Shown here piece after piece: positions 2,555 through 14,172 of a stretch of 64,000 nt of DNA; position 1 is the stretch's first letter; each line of letters starts with the position of its first letter. The DNA comes from Myxococcota bacterium. Lineage in GTDB: Bacteria; Myxococcota_A; SURF-8. Location of the stretch: assembly GCA_963674735.2 (NCBI GenBank), contig CAXXQS010000002.1, positions 2,240,001 to 2,304,000 on the forward strand, read 5' to 3'. The notes beneath the pieces were generated by a model. That model saw only the letters and a program-made list of their open reading frames with translations, was not told the DNA's origin and ran no database searches. The position numbers were made by a program, and so were the translations under genes.

Positions 2555-2787
2555 GGGATTCCGTCCTTTAGCTTTCAGTTATTTCTGAAAATACAGAAAT
2601 AAGATTGGGGTGTCAACCTAAAAAAGCAGGGATGCTACCCGGTTGTTCGGTTTGCTGCGTTTCCTGTGGTTTTTGCGATGAAGGTTTAAGCGTTTGCTTT
2701 GGAAGCGACACCTTGCGTAATGGGCGCATTTTTTGGTATGCTTATGCCGGAAACTCCGAATGTCAGGTTTGCAGCAGGAGAAGCGCG

Positions 2788-3801
2788 ATGACGCAACGAA
2801 GCGTGTGGCTGGCGGCAATGGCCGGGCTGATTTTGTGGGTTCTGGTTTTGGGGGCCTGCGGCGATATGGGGGACGATACGGAAGAAGGAGTGCAGCCCGC
2901 CCCACGTGTGCTGCTCGACGCCGTACCCGATCCCATGATGCTTTATATCGCAACGCCCGATTACGACAGCGCCACCGGCGATAACCTCGCGGTATTTTGG
3001 GAACTGACGCGCGGAGTGGCGCGTGGTGTCAACGAAACCGTTTGGCGTGAGTTGACCGTTCCCGCTGATATTACGCCTTTGCCGCCCAAGCGCGCGGATG
3101 AGACGATCGCGGTGTGGGAGCTGAGCCAGCCCCTGGACGGGGAGTCGCTTACGGTGCCGTCATTTTCAATTGAAGCCCTGTCCGACGACACCTTCAGCTA
3201 CTTCATGCGGCGGCGTCACCGTAATGCCCCCGATGCCTGGCAGATCGTCTGGTATGGCGAGATGCAGCGCGATGTGCTGACCGAGGAAGGCGGAAGTGGC
3301 GAATTTGTCTTCGATTTCAGTGCGGCTTCCGCCATCGATCCCACTTTGTCGCGGAGCGGGAGCGTCACCGTGGAATTCGACGCCAAAACGGATGAAAACC
3401 GCGAGTTGACTCTTACCTACAAGGACTACATCGCGGAAAACGATCTCAGTCAAACGCCGCGTGACATGACCTATACCTACCTGGAACGCACGGATGGTTC
3501 TGGTTCCATGGCGTTTACCACTTTTTACAACTGGACCGACCACACGGACACCATGGAAACCCTGGACGTATATAGCGACTGGACCGAGTTGCAGATGGGT
3601 CAAACCGATATTTTTATCAGCGGTGACGATCTCAGTGCTCAGAGCTTGTCTAAAGTGGAGATTCGCGAATGTTGGGATAGTCAACTGGGTCAAACCTACT
3701 ATGTCCAATTGTATTACAGCCTGAATGCCGCAGAGGACGATGAACCGGCCCGCGATCGCGAGGCGGGCGATGTAACGCTTTGCCCGATCGGGTTCGATTG
3801 A
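2788..3801 (+). CDS. Hypothetical lipoprotein (paralog A)
   Basis: AGGAG RBS before ATG 2788; lipobox LGAC; LDAVPD, ECWD and terminal CPxG motifs shared with the next gene. Confidence 0.75.
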   Translation: MTQRSVWLAAMAGLILWVLVLGACGDMGDDTEEGVQPAPRVLLDAVPDPMMLYIATPDYDSATGDNLAVFWELTRGVARGVNETVWRELTVPADITPLPPKRADETIAVWELSQPLDGESLTVPSFSIEALSDDTFSYFMRRRHRNAPDAWQIVWYGEMQRDVLTEEGGSGEFVFDFSAASAIDPTLSRSGSVTVEFDAKTDENRELTLTYKDYIAENDLSQTPRDMTYTYLERTDGSGSMAFTTFYNWTDHTDTMETLDVYSDWTELQMGQTDIFISGDDLSAQSLSKVEIRECWDSQLGQTYYVQLYYSLNAAEDDEPARDREAGDVTLCPIGFD

Positions 3802-3829: not shown

Positions 3830-4864
3830 ATGAAACGTAAGCAGTTGTTGATGGGAGTGCTCCTTTGCTTGGCTGGCTGGATGTCGATCCTGGGTTTTTC
3901 TGGTTGTGGCGGTGATGAGGAGAGTAGCGTCGCTGGTGAATGGCTCGATGCCGTTCCCGACTGGGAGCAGCTTCGCATCGAGGTGCCCGAAGCCGCTCAG
4001 GCGGCGCGTTTGCGCGGAGCCCAAGCCCCGGTGGCCACGTTTTACATGGAAACCGCCCGCATGGCGCGCGAACTAAATGCGATTGTTTACGGCTTTTTAG
4101 CTTTCATCGACGATATCGTGCGCTATCCCCCAACCGAGTCGGACGACAACCGAGCGGTATGGGCTCCCGAAGAACCGCTGACGGGCTTGGATGCCACCGT
4201 TCCGCGCTTCACGCTAACTCACCGGGATGATGGCGCTTTCGATTACGCTTTCGAGCTACGTCCGAAAGAGGAGTCCGACTATGTCACGGTCTGGGAAGGC
4301 ACCATGACACCCGAGGATGGTATGGCGCGTCGCGGACAGGGTCAGATGGCCCTTGACTTCGATATGGCGGCGAGCGTCGATCCCACCGTGCTGGAGCAGG
4401 GCCGGGCGACGGTTACCTACGATATTCGCAGTACCGAGGATCGGACGATCAGCATCGTTTTCGAGGATTTCGCTACCGAGGATGACAACTTTCCCGCCGA
4501 TGCCACCTATGATTATGTGGATGCCCAAGATAATAGCGGCGAGTTGCGGTTTACGGCCGTAACGGATATTTATCCGCTAACCAGTTCCGTTGAGAATGCG
4601 GAAGCCTGGACGCGCTGGCAGTCGGATGGCAGCGGCCAAACCGATGCGGTGGTTTCGGGCGAGGACGTTACCGCGGCGGGTTTTTTGGCGGCCGAGACCA
4701 TCGAGTGCTGGGATGCCGACTTCCGTCGTAGTTTTTACAGCGAGTACGCCACCTGGGACGAGGAAGAACATCCCGATTGGGTTGCCACCGGTGTGGATAA
4801 TCCCATCGAAAACGCGGAAAAGCGTAGTGGTGATCCTGAAACCTGTCCGTTCGGTGCGGAATAA
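3830..4864 (+). CDS. Hypothetical lipoprotein (paralog B)
   Basis: GGAGGAG RBS; lipobox FSGC; colinear similarity to 2788..3801. Confidence 0.78.
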   Translation: MKRKQLLMGVLLCLAGWMSILGFSGCGGDEESSVAGEWLDAVPDWEQLRIEVPEAAQAARLRGAQAPVATFYMETARMARELNAIVYGFLAFIDDIVRYPPTESDDNRAVWAPEEPLTGLDATVPRFTLTHRDDGAFDYAFELRPKEESDYVTVWEGTMTPEDGMARRGQGQMALDFDMAASVDPTVLEQGRATVTYDIRSTEDRTISIVFEDFATEDDNFPADATYDYVDAQDNSGELRFTAVTDIYPLTSSVENAEAWTRWQSDGSGQTDAVVSGEDVTAAGFLAAETIECWDADFRRSFYSEYATWDEEEHPDWVATGVDNPIENAEKRSGDPETCPFGAE

Positions 4865-4897: not shown

Positions 4898-4930
4898 GAC
4901 GCCGGACTCGTGGGAGTCCGGCGTTTGTGT
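4898..4930. terminator. Probable bidirectional intrinsic terminator
   Basis: Stem ACGCCGGACTC-gtgg-GAGTCCGGCGT between convergent genes; A-run before, T-rich after. Confidence 0.7.
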
Positions 4931-4951: not shown

Positions 4952-6322
4952 TTAATTACATCCGCCTCCGCCCGCGCCTTTGGCTTTTACGGTGACGATC
5001 TTGGTTTCCGGCGGGGTGGCCCCGGCGAAGACGAAGCGGGGTGGGGGTGTTTGGCTTTGACCGCCCAGATAGGCGAGGGCTGTTTGAGTGAAAGCGGTGG
5101 CCGGTTTCGGCATGAAAGAGGGCAGTGGCCAGGTGCTGGGGTCGGACAGAATGTCGCGTCGCCAGGCGTTTAACCCGCCGTCGAGGGCCAACGCGTTTTT
5201 TCCGCGTCGCCGCAAAGCGTTTACAAGGGCGAGACTGGTTTGGCCACTGTCGTCCACGAATACCAGCGGCTTGCTTTTGGGCAGATCCGCCGTCAATTTT
5301 CCAAGTCGTATGAGCGCTTCCGCGAGGAAAGCGTCGCCATCGGAGTCTCCGGCTTCGAGATATACAGACAAGGGCAAAACGAGGTCACGCTTGTCCGCAT
5401 TTACCGGGCGCAGGTCGAACAGTGCCAAGTCTTTGGGTTTTCCGGCCTGACGGTTGTTTCCTTCGGCCACCAGCCAACCGGCCAGGGTGTAGCTGTCCAC
5501 CAGCGGTGCTTCAGCCGGATCGAGGGCCGTGGCAGCGCTTTTAGGTACATGGTTGGCCAATACCGGGTGCGGGGTCGCAGATTCGGTGACAATGACCACT
5601 ACGACTCCCACAAAGGCTAAAGCCGGAGCGGCCGTATTCCAGAAGTTGCGCGGCGCTTTGACGACCGGCTTGGCGGGAGTGCTGGAATCGCTCTTTTCTG
5701 CCTTCAGTTCGGCCACCGTTTTGAGTGCGAAACGCCGTTCCAGATACGGGACGGCCGCGAAGCCGCCCAGCGCCATCAAGACCACTCCGAGCGCCCAGGG
5801 CCAGGCCGGACCGTCTCCGTAAAGTGTCATCTTGGCGGCATCGGCCGGGGCGAAAAAGTTGATAAACCAGGCTTGCTCGAACAAACCGTCGAATAAAAGT
5901 GCAAAGGCGTAGATCCCCAACACGATACCGAACAAGAAGGCCGGGGCGTCCCACCGTCCGCGTGCCAGTGCGACCACCGCCGTTCCGGGGCAGAAACCGC
6001 CGACGTAAAAACCGACGCCGAAGACGAGTCCGCCAAGCAAGATCGGCCAAAAGAAGGTGGCCTCGTACTGCACCAGTGACAGATTGAGGATACCTACGCC
6101 ATCGAGAATCAACGCGCCCAGCATGGCTGTCACGACGGCCGTGAACATCACACGGAACACGCGAAAATCGCGCAAGATAAAGACGGATGTCAGATTTTTA
6201 GAGGTGCCGAAGCCTGCGCGTTCCAGGAAGAACCCGAATAAGACGCCCAAGCCGAGCGAGATCATCAAATAGGCGATTTCGCTGAAGCCGTCCAGGGGTG
6301 CGAGAGGGAAGGGAGCATTCAT
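4952..6322 (-). CDS. YeeE/YedE (PmpB-like) sulfur transporter fused to a rhodanese-like domain with a C-terminal GGGGC tail
   Basis: GVLFGFFLERAGF and GFCPGT YeeE motifs; ALALDGGLNAW rhodanese signature with Asp (VDDSG) at the catalytic Cys position; ATGA overlap with the upstream stop and GGAGG RBS. Confidence 0.8.
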   Translation of the reverse strand: MNAPFPLAPLDGFSEIAYLMISLGLGVLFGFFLERAGFGTSKNLTSVFILRDFRVFRVMFTAVVTAMLGALILDGVGILNLSLVQYEATFFWPILLGGLVFGVGFYVGGFCPGTAVVALARGRWDAPAFLFGIVLGIYAFALLFDGLFEQAWFINFFAPADAAKMTLYGDGPAWPWALGVVLMALGGFAAVPYLERRFALKTVAELKAEKSDSSTPAKPVVKAPRNFWNTAAPALAFVGVVVVIVTESATPHPVLANHVPKSAATALDPAEAPLVDSYTLAGWLVAEGNNRQAGKPKDLALFDLRPVNADKRDLVLPLSVYLEAGDSDGDAFLAEALIRLGKLTADLPKSKPLVFVDDSGQTSLALVNALRRRGKNALALDGGLNAWRRDILSDPSTWPLPSFMPKPATAFTQTALAYLGGQSQTPPPRFVFAGATPPETKIVTVKAKGAGGGGCN

Positions 6323-7602
6323 CGCCATAACCTCCTGAATCCGAAGGCGGCCAGAAAACCGCCGGTAAAGACGCTGAACATGAAGATCCATGCTCCCACC
6401 GAAAGCAGCGCGCCGCCCGAGAGGGCTTGGTGCGAGGTACAGCCGCGTGTGTAGCGGGTGGCGAAGCCAACCAGGATGCCGCCGATGATGGCGAAGAAGA
6501 TACGGCCGCTCTTCGATATCAATTCGCCGCGATCCACGCCCGAGCGAATGCGTCCGGCCAGCGCGGCCGAAATGAAGCCGCCGATCAGGACGCCGATGAT
6601 GGACCAAGTCAGCCAGTAATGGGACACGCCCGCTTCGAAAGTCGGACCCCAGTAGCGGTTACCGAGTACATGCGCGGGGGCCATCGCACCGAGGGTGGAG
6701 GCTCCGAGGCGCGAGAAAAAGCCCGAGGCACCCAATCCATGACCAGTGAGCATGAAGGCGGCGAGGACTGTCAGGCCCAGGCCCACACCCGCTGCATAGG
6801 GCGACCAATACGGTTGTTCCTCCCGCGAGGTGATCCAGGCCCACAGGCGTTTGAAGGCGCGCCCGGCCATGCGCGGGACGCCGAAACGTTCCCGTGAATC
6901 GAGCGGCTCGCCACCTTGTCTTTCCACCTGTTCATACCACTCGATGTGGTGATGCCGGGCATAGTCGGGGTCGACGTCGCCGGTGAGCATGGAGGCCAGC
7001 GCCGGGCGTTCTTCTTTGATGAGCGCCGCCATGGTGAAGTGTACGAAGAAAAATGCGATGACGCCGCCGACGGCCACGAGGTGCAGAAGCACCAGCCACT
7101 TGCCCCATTCGCCGCCGATTCCCTGCCACATTAAAGCGCCCGAGATACCGATGACGGGTGCGCCCAATAAAACCGCCCAGCCGAAGGCTTTTTGTCCGGC
7201 GTTGTACGCGCCTTGCGGGGGCAGTTCGATCGTGTCGTTCAACTCGGCTTTGCCGCGCAACGCCAACCATGAGAGGTCGTGGCGGGTGAAACGGATGTCG
7301 CGCAGAAAGCGCGCCGCCAGGCCCCAGGGATCGAGAATGAAGGTGACGCCCAAGATGGCGAACCAAAGGACGCCGATCGCAATATGGGCATTCAACAGCG
7401 CCTGCTGACTACCGAAGACGGCCAGCAGAGCGTCGATGTAGGGTTGTGGGGCCACGCGGTAACCGGCGGCGGTGACGATACCGATGCCGGTGAGCCACAG
7501 GAAGAGAAAACAGGCGGCGTTGAACCAATGTAACAGCCGCTGCGGCAAGGGATGCTTGACGAGCGTCCCGGAGGCGGCTTCATGTGCATGTTTCGTCGTC
7601 AT
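6319..7602 (-). CDS. FdnI/PhsC-type di-heme cytochrome b fused to a YeeE/YedE (PmpA-like) domain
   Basis: N-half: RLLHW, NAHI, GAYNAGQK, LLHL, FVHF heme-ligand pattern. C-half: YWSPYAAGVGLG...RYTRGCTSHQALSG. Single uninterrupted frame. Confidence 0.85.
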   Translation of the reverse strand: MTTKHAHEAASGTLVKHPLPQRLLHWFNAACFLFLWLTGIGIVTAAGYRVAPQPYIDALLAVFGSQQALLNAHIAIGVLWFAILGVTFILDPWGLAARFLRDIRFTRHDLSWLALRGKAELNDTIELPPQGAYNAGQKAFGWAVLLGAPVIGISGALMWQGIGGEWGKWLVLLHLVAVGGVIAFFFVHFTMAALIKEERPALASMLTGDVDPDYARHHHIEWYEQVERQGGEPLDSRERFGVPRMAGRAFKRLWAWITSREEQPYWSPYAAGVGLGLTVLAAFMLTGHGLGASGFFSRLGASTLGAMAPAHVLGNRYWGPTFEAGVSHYWLTWSIIGVLIGGFISAALAGRIRSGVDRGELISKSGRIFFAIIGGILVGFATRYTRGCTSHQALSGGALLSVGAWIFMFSVFTGGFLAAFGFRRLWR

Positions 7603-7617
7603 TTGGAAACCTCCCGT

Positions 7618-8418
7618 TTAGTTCGCGGCTGAAGGTGGATCGGCGGGAGGTGGCTTGTTGTCCTTTTCCGCCTGATTGATTTTATTTTTTCGTCCGCGCA
7701 ACACGCGCAGCGCGACCATTCCCGCCATGGCCGCCATACTGGCCACACCCAGTCCTTGCACCAACCAGCCCGCGCCGTTTCGCCAGATGGCGGCGGGCAT
7801 GACGAAGCCCAGTTTGGGTGGACGTTTGGCGGCGACGAGTTCAAGGTCTTCGGGGCGTCCGCTCAGAATCAGGCGCGGTTTCGGATTCACCGTCTCCGAG
7901 ACAAGCTTCATCTGCTTGTGTCCCGCATCAGGTTTGCTTACATTGCCTATCCGAACGGTTTGGGAACGTCCGTCGATCTCCACCACTTCCTCGAACAGGC
8001 GGGCATCGGCCGGACAGACATCGAAACAAGCCGGGGCCAGTCCCGCCTGCACGCGCCCGTCGCAGAGGGTGCATTTTTCGAGTTTCTTGCTGCCGGGGTC
8101 CACGTAGCGGGCATCGTAGGGACAGGCTTTGACGCACATCCCGCAGCCGATGCACAGCTCTTTGTCCACCAGCACGCGCCCATCGGCGGCCTTGTAGGAA
8201 GCTCCGGTGGGACAGGCGGGTACGCAGGGCGGCTCTTCGCAGTGGTGGCAGAGATACGGAGCATACGTGGCGTGAGCCGTCTTCGTCTCGTTGGCTTCCA
8301 GGTAGGGGACGAAGCAGCGTGCGTGTGAAGGATTGAGGTCGTTGACGGTGACGCAGGCCACTTCGCAGGCCCGGCAGCCGATACAGCGGCTGACATCGAT
8401 GCGGAATTTGAATGCCAT
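7618..8418 (-). CDS. psrB: PsrB/PhsB-like 4x[4Fe-4S] subunit with a C-terminal TM anchor
   Basis: CIGCRAC...C, CHHC...CVPAC, CIGCGMCVKAC, KCTLC...CFDVC; hydrophobic helix near the C-terminus. Confidence 0.85.
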   Translation of the reverse strand: MAFKFRIDVSRCIGCRACEVACVTVNDLNPSHARCFVPYLEANETKTAHATYAPYLCHHCEEPPCVPACPTGASYKAADGRVLVDKELCIGCGMCVKACPYDARYVDPGSKKLEKCTLCDGRVQAGLAPACFDVCPADARLFEEVVEIDGRSQTVRIGNVSKPDAGHKQMKLVSETVNPKPRLILSGRPEDLELVAAKRPPKLGFVMPAAIWRNGAGWLVQGLGVASMAAMAGMVALRVLRGRKNKINQAEKDNKPPPADPPSAAN

Positions 8419-8433
8419 ATCGAATTTCCCTCC

Positions 8434-10758
8434 TTACGCCGCGTGCGGTTTGACCAGACGGACGAAATTCACCCGCATGGCCGTGCCGCCCGATAGAGGA
8501 TCAAGCACGTAACTGGAAATCAGCTTCGAATCGTCGGCCCCCTTGCGGTAGGCCCGAGTCAGCTGGCGGCTGTTGTGGCCGTGGCCATGGGTCATGTAAA
8601 CGGCATCGTCGCGCATGCGTGCGGTGACGTACAGTTTGATGGGGCCTTCACGTACGCCGTCCTGATTGATGACCTCCACCCGGTCGCCGTCTTTCACGCC
8701 GTAGGAGGCCGCCACTTTCGGGCTGGCCCACAAAGTGTTTTCCGGCTCGCGGCCGTGCAACACCGGTGTGTTCTGGGTCCGGCCGAAGCTGTGCACCGGT
8801 GAGCGGCCGTAGGTGAGGCGCACGTGTCCCGGCGGTCCCTGGCGTGGGGCGAAGTAGGTGGGTAACGGCTCGAAACCCGTGGGATCTTCGCCTTTTTCGA
8901 GTTTTTCACGCCAAGCCTTTTCCAAATCCTTGCTGTACAGCTTCACTTTGTTTGCACCAGGTTTCCCATCGAAATCGGGAAAGCTCAGTTTGCGCCCGGA
9001 GCGGCCCGTGCCGTCGGGTCCGAGACCCAGACCGTCGCGGTAGATCGGGCGACCGTCGTCGAAAACCACCACGCCGTCGCGCTTCAGTTGCTCGAAATCG
9101 ACCGGCTGATGGGGGTGCTTATTATTGTATACCTCGATGATGCGACGTTGAAAATCGGCCAGGCAATCTTTGGGGCAATACTGGCCGAGGCCCATCGCCT
9201 TGCCGATGCCCATGGCGAGGTAACATTCGCAATCGCTTTCGCCGATGGGCTCGGTGGCCGGTTGCGGAATGGCCACGTAGGGGTCGCGATTGGGTGTCGC
9301 CACCAACGGGTCGGGACGCTCCAGGTAAGTGGCGGCCGGCAGCAGGACGTCGGCGTAGGTTGTGATTTCGGTTGGCAGAATGTCCACCACGACCAGCGCA
9401 TCCAGCTTGTGGATAGCGGCGATGGTTTCCTGCTGGGCGGGCAGCGAGGTGATGAGGTTCGAGCCCGCCACGATCCAGGCCTTGATTTTACCTTCCAAGG
9501 TGGCTTGTCGAATGCCATTGACGTTTCCGGCGATGCCGAAGGGATAACCGGGGTCGCGCCGCTCGGCCATCTTCGGGTAGGGCGGCATGTCGGGATAAGC
9601 TTGGTGGATCGAGGGAATCTTCAGCTTGTGCGGGAGGTAGTAACCTCCGCGAGCTCCCCAACTTCCCGTAATGGCAGTTAAAATCGCGATGGCGCGCGAG
9701 CGTTGGGTGTCGTTGCCGTACCACACCACGTGGCGACCCGGATGGAAGACCACATGGGGACCGGCTTTGCCGATCAGGTGTGCGCTGCGCAGGATCTCGG
9801 CGGCATCGAGGTCGGTTTGCTTCGCCGCCCATTCAGGGGTGGCGCTTCTCACGTGCTCGGCCAGCTCATCGAAGCCGCTGCAATGCTGGTCGATGAAGTC
9901 CCGGTCGATCAAGTTATCGCGGATTAAAATATGTATCCAGGCGAGCAGTAGGGCGATGTCGGTGCCGGGTTTGATGGGCAGCCAGGCATGGGCCTTTTCG
10001 GCGGCGGTGGAGCGACGCGGGTCGACCACGATCACCTTGGCGCCGCGCGTGCGGGCGGTGACGAACTCCTGTACTTGCAGATTGTGCATGTTTTCGCCGA
10101 GATGCGAGCCAATCAGCACCAGGCAGTCGGTGTTTTCGATATCGAGCGGCTCGGGCGACTTCAATTCGTGGCCGAACGTGAGTTTGAAGCCGACTTCGCG
10201 TGGACCCTTGCATTGGTCGTAGGCCGGGTGCGTGTGGTGCGGTGTGCCGATGGCGGAAGCCAGGTGGCCGAAATGCGCTTCGGAGGGACCATGGGTCATG
10301 ATGGCCAACGCGCCGGGACCGTGTTTGTCCACCACTTCTTTCAGCAGACGCCCCGCCTCGGCGAACGCCTCGTCTTGGCTTGCCCGCTTGAACAGTCCCT
10401 CGCCGCGCCGTCCGCTGCGGATTTGCGGGAAAGTCAGGCGGTCGGAGTCTTCGTGCATGCCGATGCCGCCCACTCCGCGCGGGCACAGGCGACCGCGGCT
10501 CATGGGGTGTTTCGGGTTGCCGCGCAGGTGCAGCAGCGTACCGTCTGCGCCCACTTCGGCGGTAACGCCGCATTTCCAGAAACAGACACCGCAGATGGTG
10601 TTGACCAACTTGGATGGCTGCGGGGCGATGTCGCGCGGATGCTCGGCGGTGTCCGTTGCGGCGGCGACGGCGGTAGCTTCGACCGTGGCGGCGACGGCGC
10701 TCGCCCCGACGACCCCGGCGGTTCCCGCTTTGAGAAAGCTGCGTCGATTCATGGGCAT
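8434..10758 (-). CDS. psrA: Polysulfide/thiosulfate reductase-type molybdopterin catalytic subunit (PsrA/PhsA)
   Basis: Tat signal NRRSFLK; FS0 motif CGVCFWKC...LCPRG; Cys Mo-ligand region DQCKGPRE; VVDPRRSTAAEKAHAWLPIKPGTD; AGGAG RBS before 10758. Confidence 0.88.
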   Translation of the reverse strand: MPMNRRSFLKAGTAGVVGASAVAATVEATAVAAATDTAEHPRDIAPQPSKLVNTICGVCFWKCGVTAEVGADGTLLHLRGNPKHPMSRGRLCPRGVGGIGMHEDSDRLTFPQIRSGRRGEGLFKRASQDEAFAEAGRLLKEVVDKHGPGALAIMTHGPSEAHFGHLASAIGTPHHTHPAYDQCKGPREVGFKLTFGHELKSPEPLDIENTDCLVLIGSHLGENMHNLQVQEFVTARTRGAKVIVVDPRRSTAAEKAHAWLPIKPGTDIALLLAWIHILIRDNLIDRDFIDQHCSGFDELAEHVRSATPEWAAKQTDLDAAEILRSAHLIGKAGPHVVFHPGRHVVWYGNDTQRSRAIAILTAITGSWGARGGYYLPHKLKIPSIHQAYPDMPPYPKMAERRDPGYPFGIAGNVNGIRQATLEGKIKAWIVAGSNLITSLPAQQETIAAIHKLDALVVVDILPTEITTYADVLLPAATYLERPDPLVATPNRDPYVAIPQPATEPIGESDCECYLAMGIGKAMGLGQYCPKDCLADFQRRIIEVYNNKHPHQPVDFEQLKRDGVVVFDDGRPIYRDGLGLGPDGTGRSGRKLSFPDFDGKPGANKVKLYSKDLEKAWREKLEKGEDPTGFEPLPTYFAPRQGPPGHVRLTYGRSPVHSFGRTQNTPVLHGREPENTLWASPKVAASYGVKDGDRVEVINQDGVREGPIKLYVTARMRDDAVYMTHGHGHNSRQLTRAYRKGADDSKLISSYVLDPLSGGTAMRVNFVRLVKPHAA

Positions 10759-10762
10759 GCGA

Positions 10763-11122
10763 TCACTCCTGAATGCTGGGTGGCAGTGTGTTATCAAGAC
10801 CCAAGGCTTCGCCGCGCCGCGTGTGCAACTCGGCCAGTCCTTCGCGAATGAGGCGGCAGGCTTCGAGGAACTTCGGATTGGCGATGCGGTAGTGGACCTG
10901 CTGGCCTTCCTTGCGCGCCAACACCGCGCCTTTATCGCGCATCACCCGCAAGTGTTGGGAAATATTGGCGATACTGGTTTCGAGTTCTTCGGCCAGCTCG
11001 CTTACCGTGCATTCGCCGTGTTGCAGCCGCCACATGATTTGGACGCGTTTCTGGTTGCCCATGACGGAACAGAAGTCCGATTGGATTTTACACAGGCGCG
11101 GATCGGCGATGTTATGTGACAT
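10763..11122 (-). CDS. ArsR/SmtB-family transcriptional regulator
   Basis: wHTH motif GECTVSELAEEL...ISQHLRVMRDKGAV..RKEGQQVHYRI; Cys residues near both ends; first gene of the operon. Confidence 0.9.
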   Translation of the reverse strand: MSHNIADPRLCKIQSDFCSVMGNQKRVQIMWRLQHGECTVSELAEELETSIANISQHLRVMRDKGAVLARKEGQQVHYRIANPKFLEACRLIREGLAELHTRRGEALGLDNTLPPSIQE

Positions 11123-11344: not shown

Positions 11345-12271
11345 CTATTCAACAAGATTCCGCGCACAACGAAAACCTCTACTTTCTGATGAAAATACGC
11401 TAATTCCTTTGTCTCGATATGAGGAACGACGGTAATCGCCATATATATAAACGTCGGAATGATAACTACCACCACGAATAACATGTTCATGGCAAAATTC
11501 TTCTTTTAACCAAGCACGACCATCTGTCGGCGCACCCTCGTAATTGTCATGCCAGCAATCTTCCACCCATTCCCACACATTGCCCGACATATCGTAAAGA
11601 CCATAATCGTTGGGGAGTTTTCCTTTGACTGGGTGAGTTTGTTCACCACCATTCCATTCCCACCAGCCTATCTCGTCTGCACACTCGGACTCATCTCCAC
11701 AAGGATACTGCGTTGTTGATCCAGCACGGACGGCGTATTCCCATTCGGCTTCAGTTGGTAATCGTCCACCAACGGCGTGGCAGAATGCCCGAGCATCGAA
11801 CCACGTTATAGATTCAACAGGACAATGGCGGCATGAGTTGGAGTTGGGAACCTGAAACCAGCTAGGATTCCATGTCATGACGAATTCATATTGCTCCTGT
11901 GTTATCTCGGTCTGTGTCATCTCGAAAGCCGAAATCTGGACGTGATGCCGTGGCATTTCGGTAGCACTCCCCTCCGAACAACCCATTTCAAACTCTCCGG
12001 ATGAAATCGGTACCCATGTCAAGCCATAGTTATTTCTCTCCATATCAGTTCCATCTGCGTCTCCATCAATGACAGCGCCATCAAACACGCAGACATGCTC
12101 CGAACAAAACAATCCTTCCACACAATCTGGTGTTTCAACACAACTCTCACCCTCCTGGCTGAATATATGATCTGGGCAAGCGTCGCTACTCTCTTCGACA
12201 CACGAAACAAAACCCAGGGCACAAACGATGAAGCCCCACATAAGAACGATAGAGACTTGTTTTTGCTTCAT
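11345..12271 (-). CDS. FGE-sulfatase (SUMF1/C-type lectin fold) domain lipoprotein
   Basis: Lipobox FVSC; RLPTEAEWEYA, GLYDMSGNVWEW, RGGS...GFRC; lower GC than the flanks. Confidence 0.88.
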   Translation of the reverse strand: MKQKQVSIVLMWGFIVCALGFVSCVEESSDACPDHIFSQEGESCVETPDCVEGLFCSEHVCVFDGAVIDGDADGTDMERNNYGLTWVPISSGEFEMGCSEGSATEMPRHHVQISAFEMTQTEITQEQYEFVMTWNPSWFQVPNSNSCRHCPVESITWFDARAFCHAVGGRLPTEAEWEYAVRAGSTTQYPCGDESECADEIGWWEWNGGEQTHPVKGKLPNDYGLYDMSGNVWEWVEDCWHDNYEGAPTDGRAWLKEEFCHEHVIRGGSYHSDVYIYGDYRRSSYRDKGISVFSSESRGFRCARNLVE

Positions 12272-12316: not shown

Positions 12317-13006
12317 CTAGCGTGCACATCGAACATAAATTCCATCCGACAGATTTGGGATTGCATCCACATAGGCAATATTGAAACAAACTCCCCAATT
12401 GCGATAGTCGTTATCCTCATCGCCCATGGAAGACCAATAACATGTACATTTACCTTCCAGATCAGCTGACCAATAGCAGTCATCGGTTGGAGAATCATCC
12501 AACACACAGCCTCCACAGGTTATACTCTGGCATCGTTCTTTCATGCACTCTTCCTCACCCATATTGCATTCTCCGCCTATTTCCGTCTGTGGGCAGCCGC
12601 GGATAAGCGAACGCAGCTCGAAAAGGGAAGGCAGACGCCAGTCATCTTCTCCGTTCAACTCCAGATCCTCGCAATACGCCAGTGCGTCTTCCCAGTTCAT
12701 GGTTTGTTCTGCCGGTGGATTCTGCCACATCAAGCCGGTCGCGCCGTCGATCCAGACATGGTCGAGTACGACATCTTCCAATGAGTCGTCGTCCATCTCC
12801 GAAGCATCCCCATCCGGTTCGGAATCAGGCTGAACGCAAACCTGGTCGATGCAGCGCAGGCAATCGGCACAATCGGTGGTCCGACTGCAACTGTCACCCA
12901 ATGCACGACCGCTTTCATCCGATTCATTGCAGCCGCCGAGGCCACTGTTTATAAGAATCAGGACCAGAAGAAACATCCCATTGATAGCGTGCGCAAGCTG
13001 CTGCAT
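12317..13006 (-). CDS. DUF1566/Lcl C-terminal domain lipoprotein
   Basis: Lipobox LGGC; DGATGLMWQ...WEDALAYC..L...DWRLPSLFELRSL...YWSS...VRC. Confidence 0.85.
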   Translation of the reverse strand: MQQLAHAINGMFLLVLILINSGLGGCNESDESGRALGDSCSRTTDCADCLRCIDQVCVQPDSEPDGDASEMDDDSLEDVVLDHVWIDGATGLMWQNPPAEQTMNWEDALAYCEDLELNGEDDWRLPSLFELRSLIRGCPQTEIGGECNMGEEECMKERCQSITCGGCVLDDSPTDDCYWSADLEGKCTCYWSSMGDEDNDYRNWGVCFNIAYVDAIPNLSDGIYVRCAR

Positions 13007-13257
13007 TGTTCAAACCTCAACTGAAAAGCCCCCACGCGAGCCTGGGTTTGTGTGGATGGTCGGATACGGGGCGAGTCGTATCGGGCGGAAAACCGCCTAC
13101 CCGGTATTGTACGGATGAGACCTCGAATATACAAGGCCAATCTTTTTTTAAGGGAGGATTCTCCAGGCTCCGAAAAATCTCGTGCCATTTTTCAACGTTG
13201 ACCTATACTGGCCGCTTGAAGCTGAACGGGTTGCCGGTTGTAGCATGGGAGCGACGA

Positions 13258-14172
13258 ATGATGGGCAGGTGGTTGAAAACGAACTGGAATCTGGGGCTGC
13301 TGGCGCTGGTGATGCTGTCTTTGACGCTCCTGCTTGTGTTGCCCCTCGGGTTGCCGGAGAGTGTCAACCGGTGGGTGACCTTGCTTTTACCGAACCTGCT
13401 GGTGGGCTCGATAGCCGGTGTTCTGGCCGGACTTCTCGGTGTCGGTGGCGGACTGGTGATTGTCCCCATGCTGGTGTTTATCCTGCCGACTCAAGGCGTC
13501 CCGCATGATTCGCTGATGCACCTGGCGCTCGGGACGAGTATGGCCAGCATCCTGTTTACCTCGGTTTCAAGCTTCATGGCCCACCATCGGCGCGGGGCGG
13601 TGCGTTGGGATATCGTACGCCGGATCGTGGTCGGCATTCTGATCGGTACCTTTCTGGGGGCGCAAGTGGTTTCGTTGTTGTCCACCGACTTCCTCAAGGC
13701 TTTCTTCGTGATCTTCGCCTATTACGTGGCGGTTCAGATGTTGGCCAACTACAAGCCCAAACCCTCGCGCCAGCTTCCGAGCCGCGCCGGACTTCTGGGC
13801 GCGGGCGGCGTTATCGGCCTGGTCTCAAGTTTTGTGGGCATCGGCGGCGGGAGTTTGTCGGTGCCTTTCATGGTGTGGTGCAACATTCCCATGCATACCG
13901 CCATCGGCACCTCGGCCGCCATCGGCTTTCCCATCGCTGTGGCCGGGACCGCCGGATATGTCGTCAGTGGCTTGGCCGCATCGAATCTGCCGCCCCTTTG
14001 TTTAGGCTACCTGTATCTTCCGGCTCTGATCGGTATCGTGGGCGCCAGCGTTCTGACCGCCCCGCTGGGCGCGCGTCTGGCGCACCGTTTGCCGGTGGCC
14101 GGGCTCAAAAAGGTGTTTGCTGTCTTGCTGATCGTGATGGGGACGCGGCTTCTGTGGGGGCTGGTCGCCTGA
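13258..14172 (+). CDS. TauE/SafE (TSUP) sulfite exporter family protein
   Basis: Twin GLLGVGGG / SFVGIGGG motifs, ALGTS / AIGTS, multiple TM helices; start codon approximate. Confidence 0.9.
   Translation: MMGRWLKTNWNLGLLALVMLSLTLLLVLPLGLPESVNRWVTLLLPNLLVGSIAGVLAGLLGVGGGLVIVPMLVFILPTQGVPHDSLMHLALGTSMASILFTSVSSFMAHHRRGAVRWDIVRRIVVGILIGTFLGAQVVSLLSTDFLKAFFVIFAYYVAVQMLANYKPKPSRQLPSRAGLLGAGGVIGLVSSFVGIGGGSLSVPFMVWCNIPMHTAIGTSAAIGFPIAVAGTAGYVVSGLAASNLPPLCLGYLYLPALIGIVGASVLTAPLGARLAHRLPVAGLKKVFAVLLIVMGTRLLWGLVA

Follow-up and report, generated by a model that had tools for sequence, protein, structure and literature searches.

We analysed an operon at positions 4952–11122 of a 64,000-nucleotide stretch of DNA from a Myxococcota bacterium (GTDB lineage Bacteria; Myxococcota_A; SURF-8), assembly GCA_963674735.2, contig CAXXQS010000002.1, positions 2,240,001–2,304,000 of the forward strand; this whole stretch is referred to below as the window. 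Open reading frame (ORF) calls combined with Pfam and NCBIfam searches identified five ORFs that fill the interval as one tight operon, all on the minus strand (Table 1). They encode an ArsR/SmtB-family regulator, a molybdenum (Mo) catalytic subunit resembling PsrA and PhsA, an iron–sulfur (FeS) subunit and two fusion proteins. In the 427-amino-acid protein P0002 (ORF 6319–7602), a cytochrome b domain (PF01292, residues 17–208) and half of a YeeE-type channel (PF04143, residues 256–416) are contained in one chain. In the 456-amino-acid protein P0001 (ORF 4952–6322), the N-terminal half of PF04143 is joined to a rhodanese-like domain (PF00581), followed by a Gly-rich tail with a Cys as its penultimate residue.

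The ATG of the Mo subunit at 10758 lies 4 nucleotides behind the arsR stop codon and is preceded by AGGAG. The FeS and cytochrome b genes are each preceded by a 15-nucleotide gap with a GGAGG-type site, and the last gene, whose true start is at 6322, overlaps its predecessor by an ATGA stop/start and has AGGAGG 8 nucleotides upstream. A hairpin with a T-run directly follows the last stop codon. The tightly coupled order arsR-psrA-psrB-(cytb::YeeE)-(YeeE::rhodanese) that a first-pass annotation of this DNA had proposed is borne out by the domains, the gaps of 4–15 nucleotides and the ATGA overlap. A promoter-like site precedes arsR, but the number of such sites did not exceed that in shuffled sequences (2 found, 2.2 expected).

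Table 1. Features of the operon, with window positions; features are listed in the order of transcription
Feature	Position	Strand	Evidence
ArsR/SmtB-family transcription factor, 119 amino acids from ATG at 11122	10763..11122	-	PF01022 43.9 bits; NF033788 78.3 bits, cut-off 55
Mo-bisPGD (molybdenum bis-pyranopterin guanine dinucleotide) catalytic subunit, PsrA/PhsA-like, predicted to be exported by twin-arginine translocation (Tat)	8434..10758	-	PF00384, PF01568, PF04879; RRSFLK Tat-type motif
Four-cluster FeS subunit with one C-terminal transmembrane (TM) helix and a basic, predicted cytoplasmic tail	7618..8418	-	PF13247 86 bits; hydropathy
FdnI-type di-heme cytochrome b domain, residues 1–235 of the 427-amino-acid fusion P0002	6898..7602	-	PF01292 82.9 bits, cut-off 30.1
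PmpA-like (C-terminal) YeeE half, residues ~265–427 of P0002	6319..6810	-	PF04143 profile 167–309 of 310
PmpB-like (N-terminal) YeeE half and fifth TM helix, residues 1–194 of the 456-amino-acid P0001	5741..6322	-	PF04143 profile 1–200 of 310
Sixth TM helix of P0001, after a K/R-rich, predicted cytoplasmic loop	5588..5644	-	Hydropathy, positive-inside counts
Rhodanese-like domain without catalytic Cys, residues ~270–392 of P0001	5147..5515	-	PF00581 32 bits, cut-off 22.2
Docking segment (predicted) and Gly-rich C-terminal tail, residues 426–456 of P0001; Cys455 codon 4958–4960	4955..5047	-	Conservation, AlphaFold2 (AF2)
Intrinsic-terminator-like hairpin and T-run closing the operon	4899..4924	-	11 pairs, 8 G-C

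Catalytic subunit

The best solved relative of the Mo subunit was PsrA of T. thermophilus (2vpw_A), matched over the full length (513 bits, residues 1–769), while the next-best, acetylene hydratase, scored 171 bits. Among the NCBIfam models PhsA (NF012032) ranked highest with 407.1 bits, and the runner-up was Fdh-alpha with 229 bits. By sequence, the catalytic subunit thus belongs to the Psr/Phs group of CISM-type (complex iron–sulfur molybdoenzyme) Mo-bisPGD enzymes, a placement on which the first-pass annotation had made its reading depend beforehand; its activity is predicted. Residues were numbered from the second ATG at 10752, which gives a protein of 772 amino acids. The Arg pair R3 and R4 of the RR motif and the Cys residues C54, C57, C61, C90 and C181 were invariant across 26 homologues. 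C181 aligned with C173 of PsrA, which we take to be the Mo ligand, and an R-H pair that was also invariant in the 26 homologues aligned with PsrA R332/H333. The Tat signal model PF10518 scored 16.6 against a cut-off of 22.7, although the RRSFLK motif is present; PF04879 scored 39.3 bits.

Membrane anchor

Hydropathy analysis placed the TM helix of the FeS subunit at residues 219–237, with seven K and R within the last 29 residues, the same plan as in FdnH. The subunit has no signal peptide of its own, because its N-terminus opens directly on the first Cys motif. A profile built from 30 fusion proteins matched Escherichia coli FdnI (1kqf_C) with an E-value of 5e-20 over residues 11–235. H25, H73, H174 and H188 were invariant in the 30 homologues and in register with the His residues of FdnI; these four predicted heme ligands fall in TM helices 1, 2 and 4. 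The cytochrome b nevertheless missed the FDH-gamma equivalog TIGR01583 (81 against a cut-off of 115.85). Eight TM segments were found in P0002, for which hydropathy and the positive-inside rule predict both termini inside.

Split YeeE channel

The PmpA-like half of P0002 aligned with residues 240–328 of StYeeE, including the GGC motif of the latter (profile E-values 0.005–0.008), and its C388, in an RGCTS motif, was invariant in the 30 homologues. C111 in the GGFCPGTA motif of the PmpB-like half of P0001 was invariant in all 37 aligned sequences. According to the accessible portion of PMC11582611, PmpB corresponds to the N-terminal YeeE half with Cys91 and PmpA to the C-terminal half with Cys293, and the two are proposed to form a heterodimer. 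The order in the window is the same, with the PmpA-like half (C388) preceding the PmpB-like half (C111). From the mapping of the Pfam halves and the part of PMC11582611 that describes PmpB, C111 is the likely equivalent of Cys91. By analogy with the StYeeE structure and the PmpAB proposal, the two halves may form one heterodimeric channel. The TsuA models (NF052577 / NF041049), whose cut-offs are 400 and 645, gave no more than 23.6, 21.1 and 15.3 bits. Another split pair, YedE1E2, imports zero-valent sulfur, as stated in the available text of PMC10812762.

The N-terminus of StYeeE is outside, and an extra helix flips the topology between the halves (PMC7449682). P0001 contained six TM segments by hydropathy, and K and R numbered 4, 2 and 8 in the inside loops and 0, 0 and 1 in the outside loops. 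The protein is therefore predicted to start outside; its fifth helix would return the chain to the cytoplasm, and the sixth would take the rhodanese-like domain and the tail to the periplasm. This last portion of P0001, and its homologues encoded by separate genes, are called carriers below.

Recurrence of the fusions and of the gene set

When P0002, the cytochrome b::YeeE protein, was searched against 5.8 billion clustered proteins, 82 matches were obtained. PF01292 and PF04143 occurred in a single chain of ~420–490 amino acids in 55 of the 82 (query included), and four further full-length homologues were recorded with PF01292 only. In the databases these proteins are named no more specifically than 'cytochrome b/b6 domain-containing' or 'formate dehydrogenase gamma'. 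For P0001, the YeeE::rhodanese protein, 46 close homologues were found (E ≤ 1e-72), many of them on contigs shared with cytochrome b::YeeE. A profile scan of GTDB with one genome per species yielded 567 confirmed matches, the best 80 of which were taken as loci (L numbers) and parsed by tblastn with the five window proteins and by ORF parsing. Homologues of the Mo and FeS subunits were present in 68 of these 80 loci and the Mo subunit together with both YeeE halves in 53. The cytochrome b::YeeE fusion was found in 18 and, as single proteins recur in both samples (55/82 matches, 18/80 loci), the fusions are not frameshift artefacts. The fused architecture read from the window by the first-pass annotation recurs in several phyla; module-bearing genomes belonged to the Actinomycetota, Acidobacteriota, Calditrichota, Ignavibacteriota, Myxococcota, Planctomycetota and others.

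In 48 of the 53 complete modules, one of the three final residues of the carrier was a Cys with Gly or Gly-X before it; this carrier was part of the PmpB-like protein or had its own gene directly after it. Of the five remaining modules, four are truncated by a contig or locus end, and one (L071) has no such carrier. The quinone-linked anchor varied: among the 68 loci with a Mo subunit, 35 had a cytochrome b, 31 an NrfD (Pfam-confirmed for two loci), one both (L022) and one, a 2.3-kb fragment, neither. We considered a module type without a quinone subunit and rejected it, as NrfD follows the carrier gene in those loci in which the FeS and YeeE genes are adjacent. The Calditrichaceae metagenome-assembled genome (MAG) contig of L022 has two complete modules in tandem, one with a cytochrome b::YeeE protein and a minimal, 130-amino-acid Cys-tailed carrier and the other with an NrfD anchor. 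In four Myxococcota MAGs (L030, L064, L073, L080) the FeS subunit and the cytochrome b form one ORF of ~475 amino acids. Ten fused carriers of the NrfD type (L026, L027, L028, L046, L048, L055, L060, L067, L076, L082) have two extra Cys ten residues apart, ~112–125 residues from the C-terminus, which could form a disulfide or a second redox site.

In a quick maximum-likelihood tree (IQ-TREE) of 58 Mo subunits, from which rows with <650 matched residues, L022 and over-long ORFs were omitted, the NrfD-type enzymes formed one clade (SH-aLRT 98). The window enzyme grouped with four sequences from Actinomycetota or unclassified MAGs (support 100); its nearest relatives were from Actinomycetota MAGs, with 63% identity. 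The cytochrome b loci without YeeE nested among the other Mo subunits. Clustering of 752 crude ORFs from the 53 loci revealed no further widely conserved partner, with some noise from high-GC antisense ORFs; the clusters included ArsR-like proteins (9 of 53 loci), FadL-like outer-membrane proteins (6), MobA-like proteins (6) and MerR (5). Of 50 other genomes with the module, only 8 had a DsrA above the cut-off, and a strict tie of the module to dissimilatory sulfite reduction was therefore rejected.

Carrier domain and cysteine tail

Conservation in the carrier was determined from an alignment of 37 sequences, consisting of the query and 36 of the 46 close matches; three of the ten omitted matches were short, and the rest were left out without a formal criterion. 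The rhodanese fold was recognized by PF00581 (29.6–32.1 bits, cut-off 22.2). A conserved Cys was absent from the rhodanese-like domain in all 37 aligned homologues, and Cys was not the consensus at the profile position of the Cys in the Cys-Arg-Arg-Gly loop of the Uba4 rhodanese domain. In the printed sequences of separate carriers, Gly or Ser occupied the rhodanese loop position of the Cys. All 37 sequences ended in GGGC[GN], with GGGGCN in the window protein, and in 18 of 32 fused carriers the final 200 residues contained no Cys other than that of the tail. The first-pass annotation had made the rhodanese domain the carrier of a Cys relay; with its catalytic Cys absent in 37/37 it cannot have this role, and the conserved thiol is instead the C-terminal tail Cys.

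The AF2 monomer model of P0001 (mean predicted local distance difference test score, pLDDT, 74) had six long helices and an alpha/beta domain at residues 277–390. The pLDDT was <50 for residues 440–456, indicating an unstructured tail. The Foldseek neighbours of the model included the non-catalytic docking domain of MKP5 among other rhodanese folds. A single-sequence search of the PDB with P0001 gave nothing at E ≤ 1, and its profile matched only rhodanese domains; sequence and profile searches of the PDB likewise found no solved relative of the carrier besides generic rhodanese domains. A search of the ESM Atlas with the carrier part returned only rhodanese clusters (<0.9), which we regard as a lead. 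The SoxY domain PF13501 had no match in carrier residues 247–456 at E ≤ 0.05. The Cys in the C-terminal GGCGG of SoxY binds sulfur, according to the consulted part of PMC6067878, and the carrier tail resembles this arm in motif only.

Among 17 separate carriers that were inspected, 13 consisted of a signal-anchor-like N-terminal helix, a rhodanese-like domain (Pfam-confirmed in four), a Pro/Ala/Lys-rich linker and a C-terminal GC, GCS or GCG. The other four were minimal proteins of 83–130 amino acids, in which an anchor is followed by a linker and an acidic stretch that terminates in GC. The C-terminal Cys was the only Cys of the printed ORF in 10 of the 17. Together with the N-out topology of StYeeE, the signal-anchor-like N-termini fit a periplasmic location of the carrier. 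The minimal carriers of 83–92 amino acids (L020:6011-6262, L021:5492-5758, L023:5318-5596) have one TM helix and a basic linker and no rhodanese domain, which points to the tethered thiol by itself as the essential element.

Predicted contact between carrier and Mo subunit

The carrier (residues 247–456, 37-row alignment) and the Mo subunit (residues 46–772, 26-row alignment) were modelled as a complex. The pair reached an ipSAE (interaction prediction score from aligned errors) of 0.66, compared with 0.00 for the best of three controls. In a calibration that is approximate with custom alignments, 58 of the 80 solved complexes reached this value, as did 2 of the 110 mismatched pairs. The runs shared at least 73% of contacts, and the partner pLDDT was 74. 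The confident interface was formed by carrier residues 428–448, the conserved strand before the Gly-rich tail, and some residues of the rhodanese domain on one side and by residues 621–642 and adjoining loops of the Mo subunit on the other. The first-pass annotation had expected interfaces between subunits, and the model gives one for this pair. It lends support, short of proof, to the carrier domain touching the Mo subunit, where the carrier may dock. We know of no solved complex of this kind.

Regulator, host genome and neighbouring genes

The closest solved relatives of the ArsR protein were HlyU, SqrR and BigR, and the protein may regulate the operon. It was rejected as a canonical BigR/SqrR persulfide sensor (BigR model NF040642, 41.7 bits against a cut-off of 155). 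The Cys in the IMCYL/ILCML helix motif of SqrR and HlyU aligned with a Trp. Other Cys residues (C11, C18, C38, C90) are present, so that the protein may still be a thiol-based sensor.

The host genome is 94% complete and encodes DsrA (569 bits, cut-off 393) adjoining a DsrB-like frame (G000:C1:2235778-2238046, G000 denoting this genome). Within it, no match to COX1 or another heme-copper oxidase, no match to SoxY (PF13501) and no second Psr-like enzyme were detected. DsrAB together with the lack of a detected heme-copper oxidase points to a reducer or disproportionator of sulfur compounds, and the host probably lives anaerobically, with a dissimilatory metabolism of sulfite. The GC content of the operon (window positions 5001–11000) was 0.60–0.64, compared with 0.47–0.50 just upstream and 0.54–0.58 downstream. 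The fused cytochrome b::YeeE gene was found in none of 40 related genomes (G051–G090), 12 of which had partial matches (11 to the YeeE half, one to the cytochrome b part only). The GC contrast and the absence of the fusion from the 40 relatives suggest horizontal acquisition of the operon. The sequencing runs listed as containing this DNA were three DNA data sets of a single study, with no RNA data set among them.

On the opposite strand, 1.9 kb upstream of arsR, a TauE/SafE permease is encoded (13006–14172, +; PF01925, 198 bits), which could handle sulfite from thiosulfate cleavage. Between the two lie genes for two lipoprotein-like proteins, one with an FGE-sulfatase domain (11345–12271) and one with an Lcl C-terminal domain (12317–13006). 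Downstream of the operon, two adjacent ORFs of 398 and 344 amino acids (2605–3801 and 3830–4864, both +) have lipoprotein-like starts and no Pfam match; their translations resemble each other by eye. Further downstream, the ORF at 23–1474 (−) matches the FadL/TodX type weakly, with a sub-threshold 26 bits. Near the module at L025:2949-4280 a gene of the FadL type is clearly recognizable (135 bits), and such a channel as a route for hydrophobic S8 is speculative. Elsewhere in the genome, a distant Mo-enzyme frame (G000:C2:131048-132499, +), 26% identical to the Psr-like subunit, is interrupted by one in-frame TGA and may encode a selenocysteine-containing enzyme of the formate dehydrogenase type. 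A second, full-length YeeE of the genome (L001) had no recognizable sulfur partner within ~1.3–1.4 kb on either side.

Proposed function and alternatives

We lean, by a narrow preference, towards a function in which the Psr/Phs-type enzyme acts on sulfane sulfur held on the tethered periplasmic Cys arm and is coupled to the PmpAB-like channel. The Mo and FeS subunits would be exported by Tat, and the FeS subunit with its one TM helix and the di-heme cytochrome b would give the enzyme its link to the quinone pool, with the cytochrome b continuing into the PmpA-like half-channel. P0001 would contribute the PmpB-like half, two more membrane crossings and, in the periplasm, a docking domain of rhodanese-like, non-catalytic type, a short strand for docking and the flexible Cys tail. 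The tail Cys would carry sulfane sulfur as a persulfide or polysulfide, possibly as a thiosulfonate, and the docking elements would seat the arm on the Mo subunit so that the enzyme handles sulfur while it is bound to protein, most likely by reducing it stepwise to sulfide with electrons from quinol. C111 and C388 may pass sulfur between the arm and the cytoplasm, and sulfur could thereby be channelled across the membrane. The first-pass annotation had proposed a supercomplex of reductase, transporter and carrier. The two recurrent fusions and the modelled contact between carrier and Mo subunit speak for such an assembly; the part of the proposal that cast the rhodanese domain as the carrier had to be given up.

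Several observations weigh against an enzyme that acts on carrier-bound sulfur. The PhsA equivalog cut-off of 694 was missed by the Mo subunit, so the Psr/Phs placement names no substrate. The architecture of the FdnI type fits an oxidative, energy-conserving direction equally well. Tail residues 449–456, which contain the Cys, were not confidently placed in the complex model, and Foldseek searches with the AF2 monomer matched rhodanese folds only, with no YeeE among the matches. The Mo enzyme also occurs with a cytochrome b and without YeeE or carrier (for example L063, L077 and L078), and these relatives show that the enzyme can work without the module. Conversely, 12 loci have the YeeE pair without the Mo enzyme, six of them with the Cys tail (one cut upstream), so that the carrier may serve the channel rather than the reductase. 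The sample of the best 80 of 567 matches is moreover biased toward the query profile.

The same membrane module could be run in the opposite direction. The enzyme would then be a Mo-dependent sulfide (or thiosulfate) dehydrogenase with an Fdn-like redox loop, oxidizing its substrate in the periplasm and reducing quinone on the cytoplasmic side, and S(0) would be loaded on the tail Cys and imported by the PmpAB-like channel for assimilation or further oxidation. The FdnH/FdnI-like anchoring, with its TM-anchored FeS subunit and four conserved His, agrees with this, as does the lack of a DsrA over the cut-off in 42 of the 50 module-bearing genomes. A product-accepting thiol followed by an importer is chemically sensible for insoluble S(0), and the sole split YedE pair whose function has been tested is an importer of zero-valent sulfur, according to the accessible text of PMC10812762. 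The host itself, with DsrAB and no heme-copper oxidase found at 94% completeness, appears to be an anaerobic reducer or disproportionator, however, and half of the loci are anchored by NrfD rather than cytochrome b. To our knowledge, the characterized Psr/Phs enzymes are reductases. On balance we hold an oxidative role to be unlikely. Slightly less likely still is co-assembly without channelling, in which an ordinary thiosulfate or polysulfide reductase stands beside an independent PmpAB-type transporter of thiosulfate, sulfite or S(0). The Cys tail would then belong to the transporter alone, in a role like that of TsuB for TsuA but on the outer side. Loci with a YeeE pair and a Cys-tailed carrier and no Mo enzyme nearby (L062, L065, L074, L081, L083) are what such an arrangement would predict, and the Mo enzyme in turn occurs without the module. 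An organism with DsrAB would presumably also need to import sulfite from periplasmic thiosulfate cleavage, and the TauE/SafE gene lies only 1.9 kb away. Co-regulation alone hardly explains why a half-channel is fused to the cytochrome b of the reductase itself, though, and the modelled contact between carrier and Mo subunit (0.66 against 0.00) also argues for a closer connection.

A selenium system, in which a Psr-like selenite or Se(0) reductase is combined with a YedE-type selenium channel and a Se-binding thiol arm, we consider very improbable. The selenite reductase SrrA is Psr-like and has rhodanese genes in its operon, and another Mo-enzyme frame in the genome carries an in-frame TGA. 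Both channel halves also gave scores with the YedE selenium models (33.7 and 37.4 bits), but these are weak and far below the cut-offs of 350 and 200, and nothing specific to selenium was seen in the operon or the 53 clustered neighbourhoods. The closest tested split pair moves sulfur, going by the part of PMC10812762 available.

A broader proposal built on the preferred reading, an enzyme acting on carrier-bound sulfane sulfur, is more tentative and we regard it as rather doubtful in its full extent. The modules would represent a widespread, unrecognized Psr/Phs-type class whose real substrate is a persulfide or polysulfide on a tethered C-terminal Cys and not a free sulfur anion, and which is physically coupled to a pair of PmpAB half-channels, whereby sulfur passes between cytoplasm, carrier and Mo centre without release. 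If this is true, it would be the first CISM enzyme with a protein substrate, and the arm the first extracytoplasmic partner thiol for a channel of the YeeE family. Psr and Phs are used as marker genes for the reduction and disproportionation of sulfur, polysulfide and thiosulfate in metagenomes, and the locus bears on how insoluble or reactive zero-valent sulfur reaches these enzymes and on the role of the PmpAB half-channels. The two fusions and the conserved neighbourhood are genetic evidence that the three modules work as one machine. A single C-terminal Cys on a flexible arm is a new and easily mutated element that makes sulfur hand-over directly testable. The annotation 'rhodanese' in such clusters should not be read as a catalytic sulfurtransferase.

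Comparison with known systems

A phsABC-pmpA/B-sulfurtransferase cluster in Ca. Electryonea clarkiae and Caldithrix abyssi, the function of which is called unclear, is mentioned in the accessible text of PMC9324843. This cluster is the unfused form of the same neighbourhood, which was also seen here in four Calditrichota loci (L035, L057, L069, L079). The accessible text of PMC9324843 does not mention fusions, the missing rhodanese Cys or the C-terminal Cys. In the literature on YeeE, YedE or Pmp proteins with thiosulfate or polysulfide reductases, as far as it was accessible and with the supplements of PMC9324843 and PMC11582611 not covered, we found no description of a fusion or a Cys tail. 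The first-pass annotation had taken the whole architecture to be undescribed; within these sources this holds for the fusions and the Cys tail, whereas the unfused neighbourhood had already been mentioned. We did not find the fusions and the Cys arm characterized, and the C-terminal Cys arm is a new element as far as these sources go.

With PsrABC (2vpw–2vpz), the window system shares the full-length alignment of the catalytic subunit, the FeS Cys motif, the Mo-ligand Cys, the R-H pair and the periplasmic location (here predicted) of the A and B subunits. The three-subunit plan of PsrABC is also that of the 31 NrfD-anchored variants. The window system differs from it in having a cytochrome b of the FdnI type and an FeS subunit anchored by a TM helix in place of NrfD/PsrC, as well as an additional split YeeE channel and a Cys-tailed carrier. 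Salmonella PhsABC is similar in that PhsA is the best NCBIfam model and the anchor is of the cytochrome b type, PhsC being a cytochrome b; the score of 407 against 694 sets the two apart. Thiosulfate reduction by Phs is reportedly powered by proton motive force, and we know of no channel or carrier for Phs. FdnH/FdnI (1kqf) share the cytochrome b with four His in register and the C-terminal TM helix on the FeS subunit, while the catalytic subunit of the window is Psr/Phs-like and not Fdh.

The soluble periplasmic protein Sud of Wolinella succinogenes has a rhodanese fold, uses its rhodanese active-site Cys and is proposed to transfer bound polysulfide sulfur to Psr. The carrier described here is a rhodanese-fold protein of the same, in this case predicted, compartment, but it lacks the active-site Cys, has its thiol on the tail and is membrane-tethered or fused. 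The channel resembles PmpA/PmpB and YedE1E2, going by the accessible parts of PMC11582611 and PMC10812762, in its two half-size PF04143 parts with one conserved Cys each and in the order of a pmpA-like before a pmpB-like half; unlike in those pairs, each half is fused to another module. TsuA (YeeE) passes thiosulfate to the partner thiol protein TsuB (YeeD) and is comparable in this respect, but the partner thiol of the window system is predicted to be periplasmic and tethered rather than part of a soluble, cytoplasmic, TusA-like protein. SoxY, as described in the available part of PMC6067878, likewise presents bound sulfur on a Gly-flanked C-terminal Cys of a periplasmic carrier. The carrier of the window differs in having no SoxY domain, and its predicted partners are a Mo reductase and a channel instead of SoxAX/B/CD.

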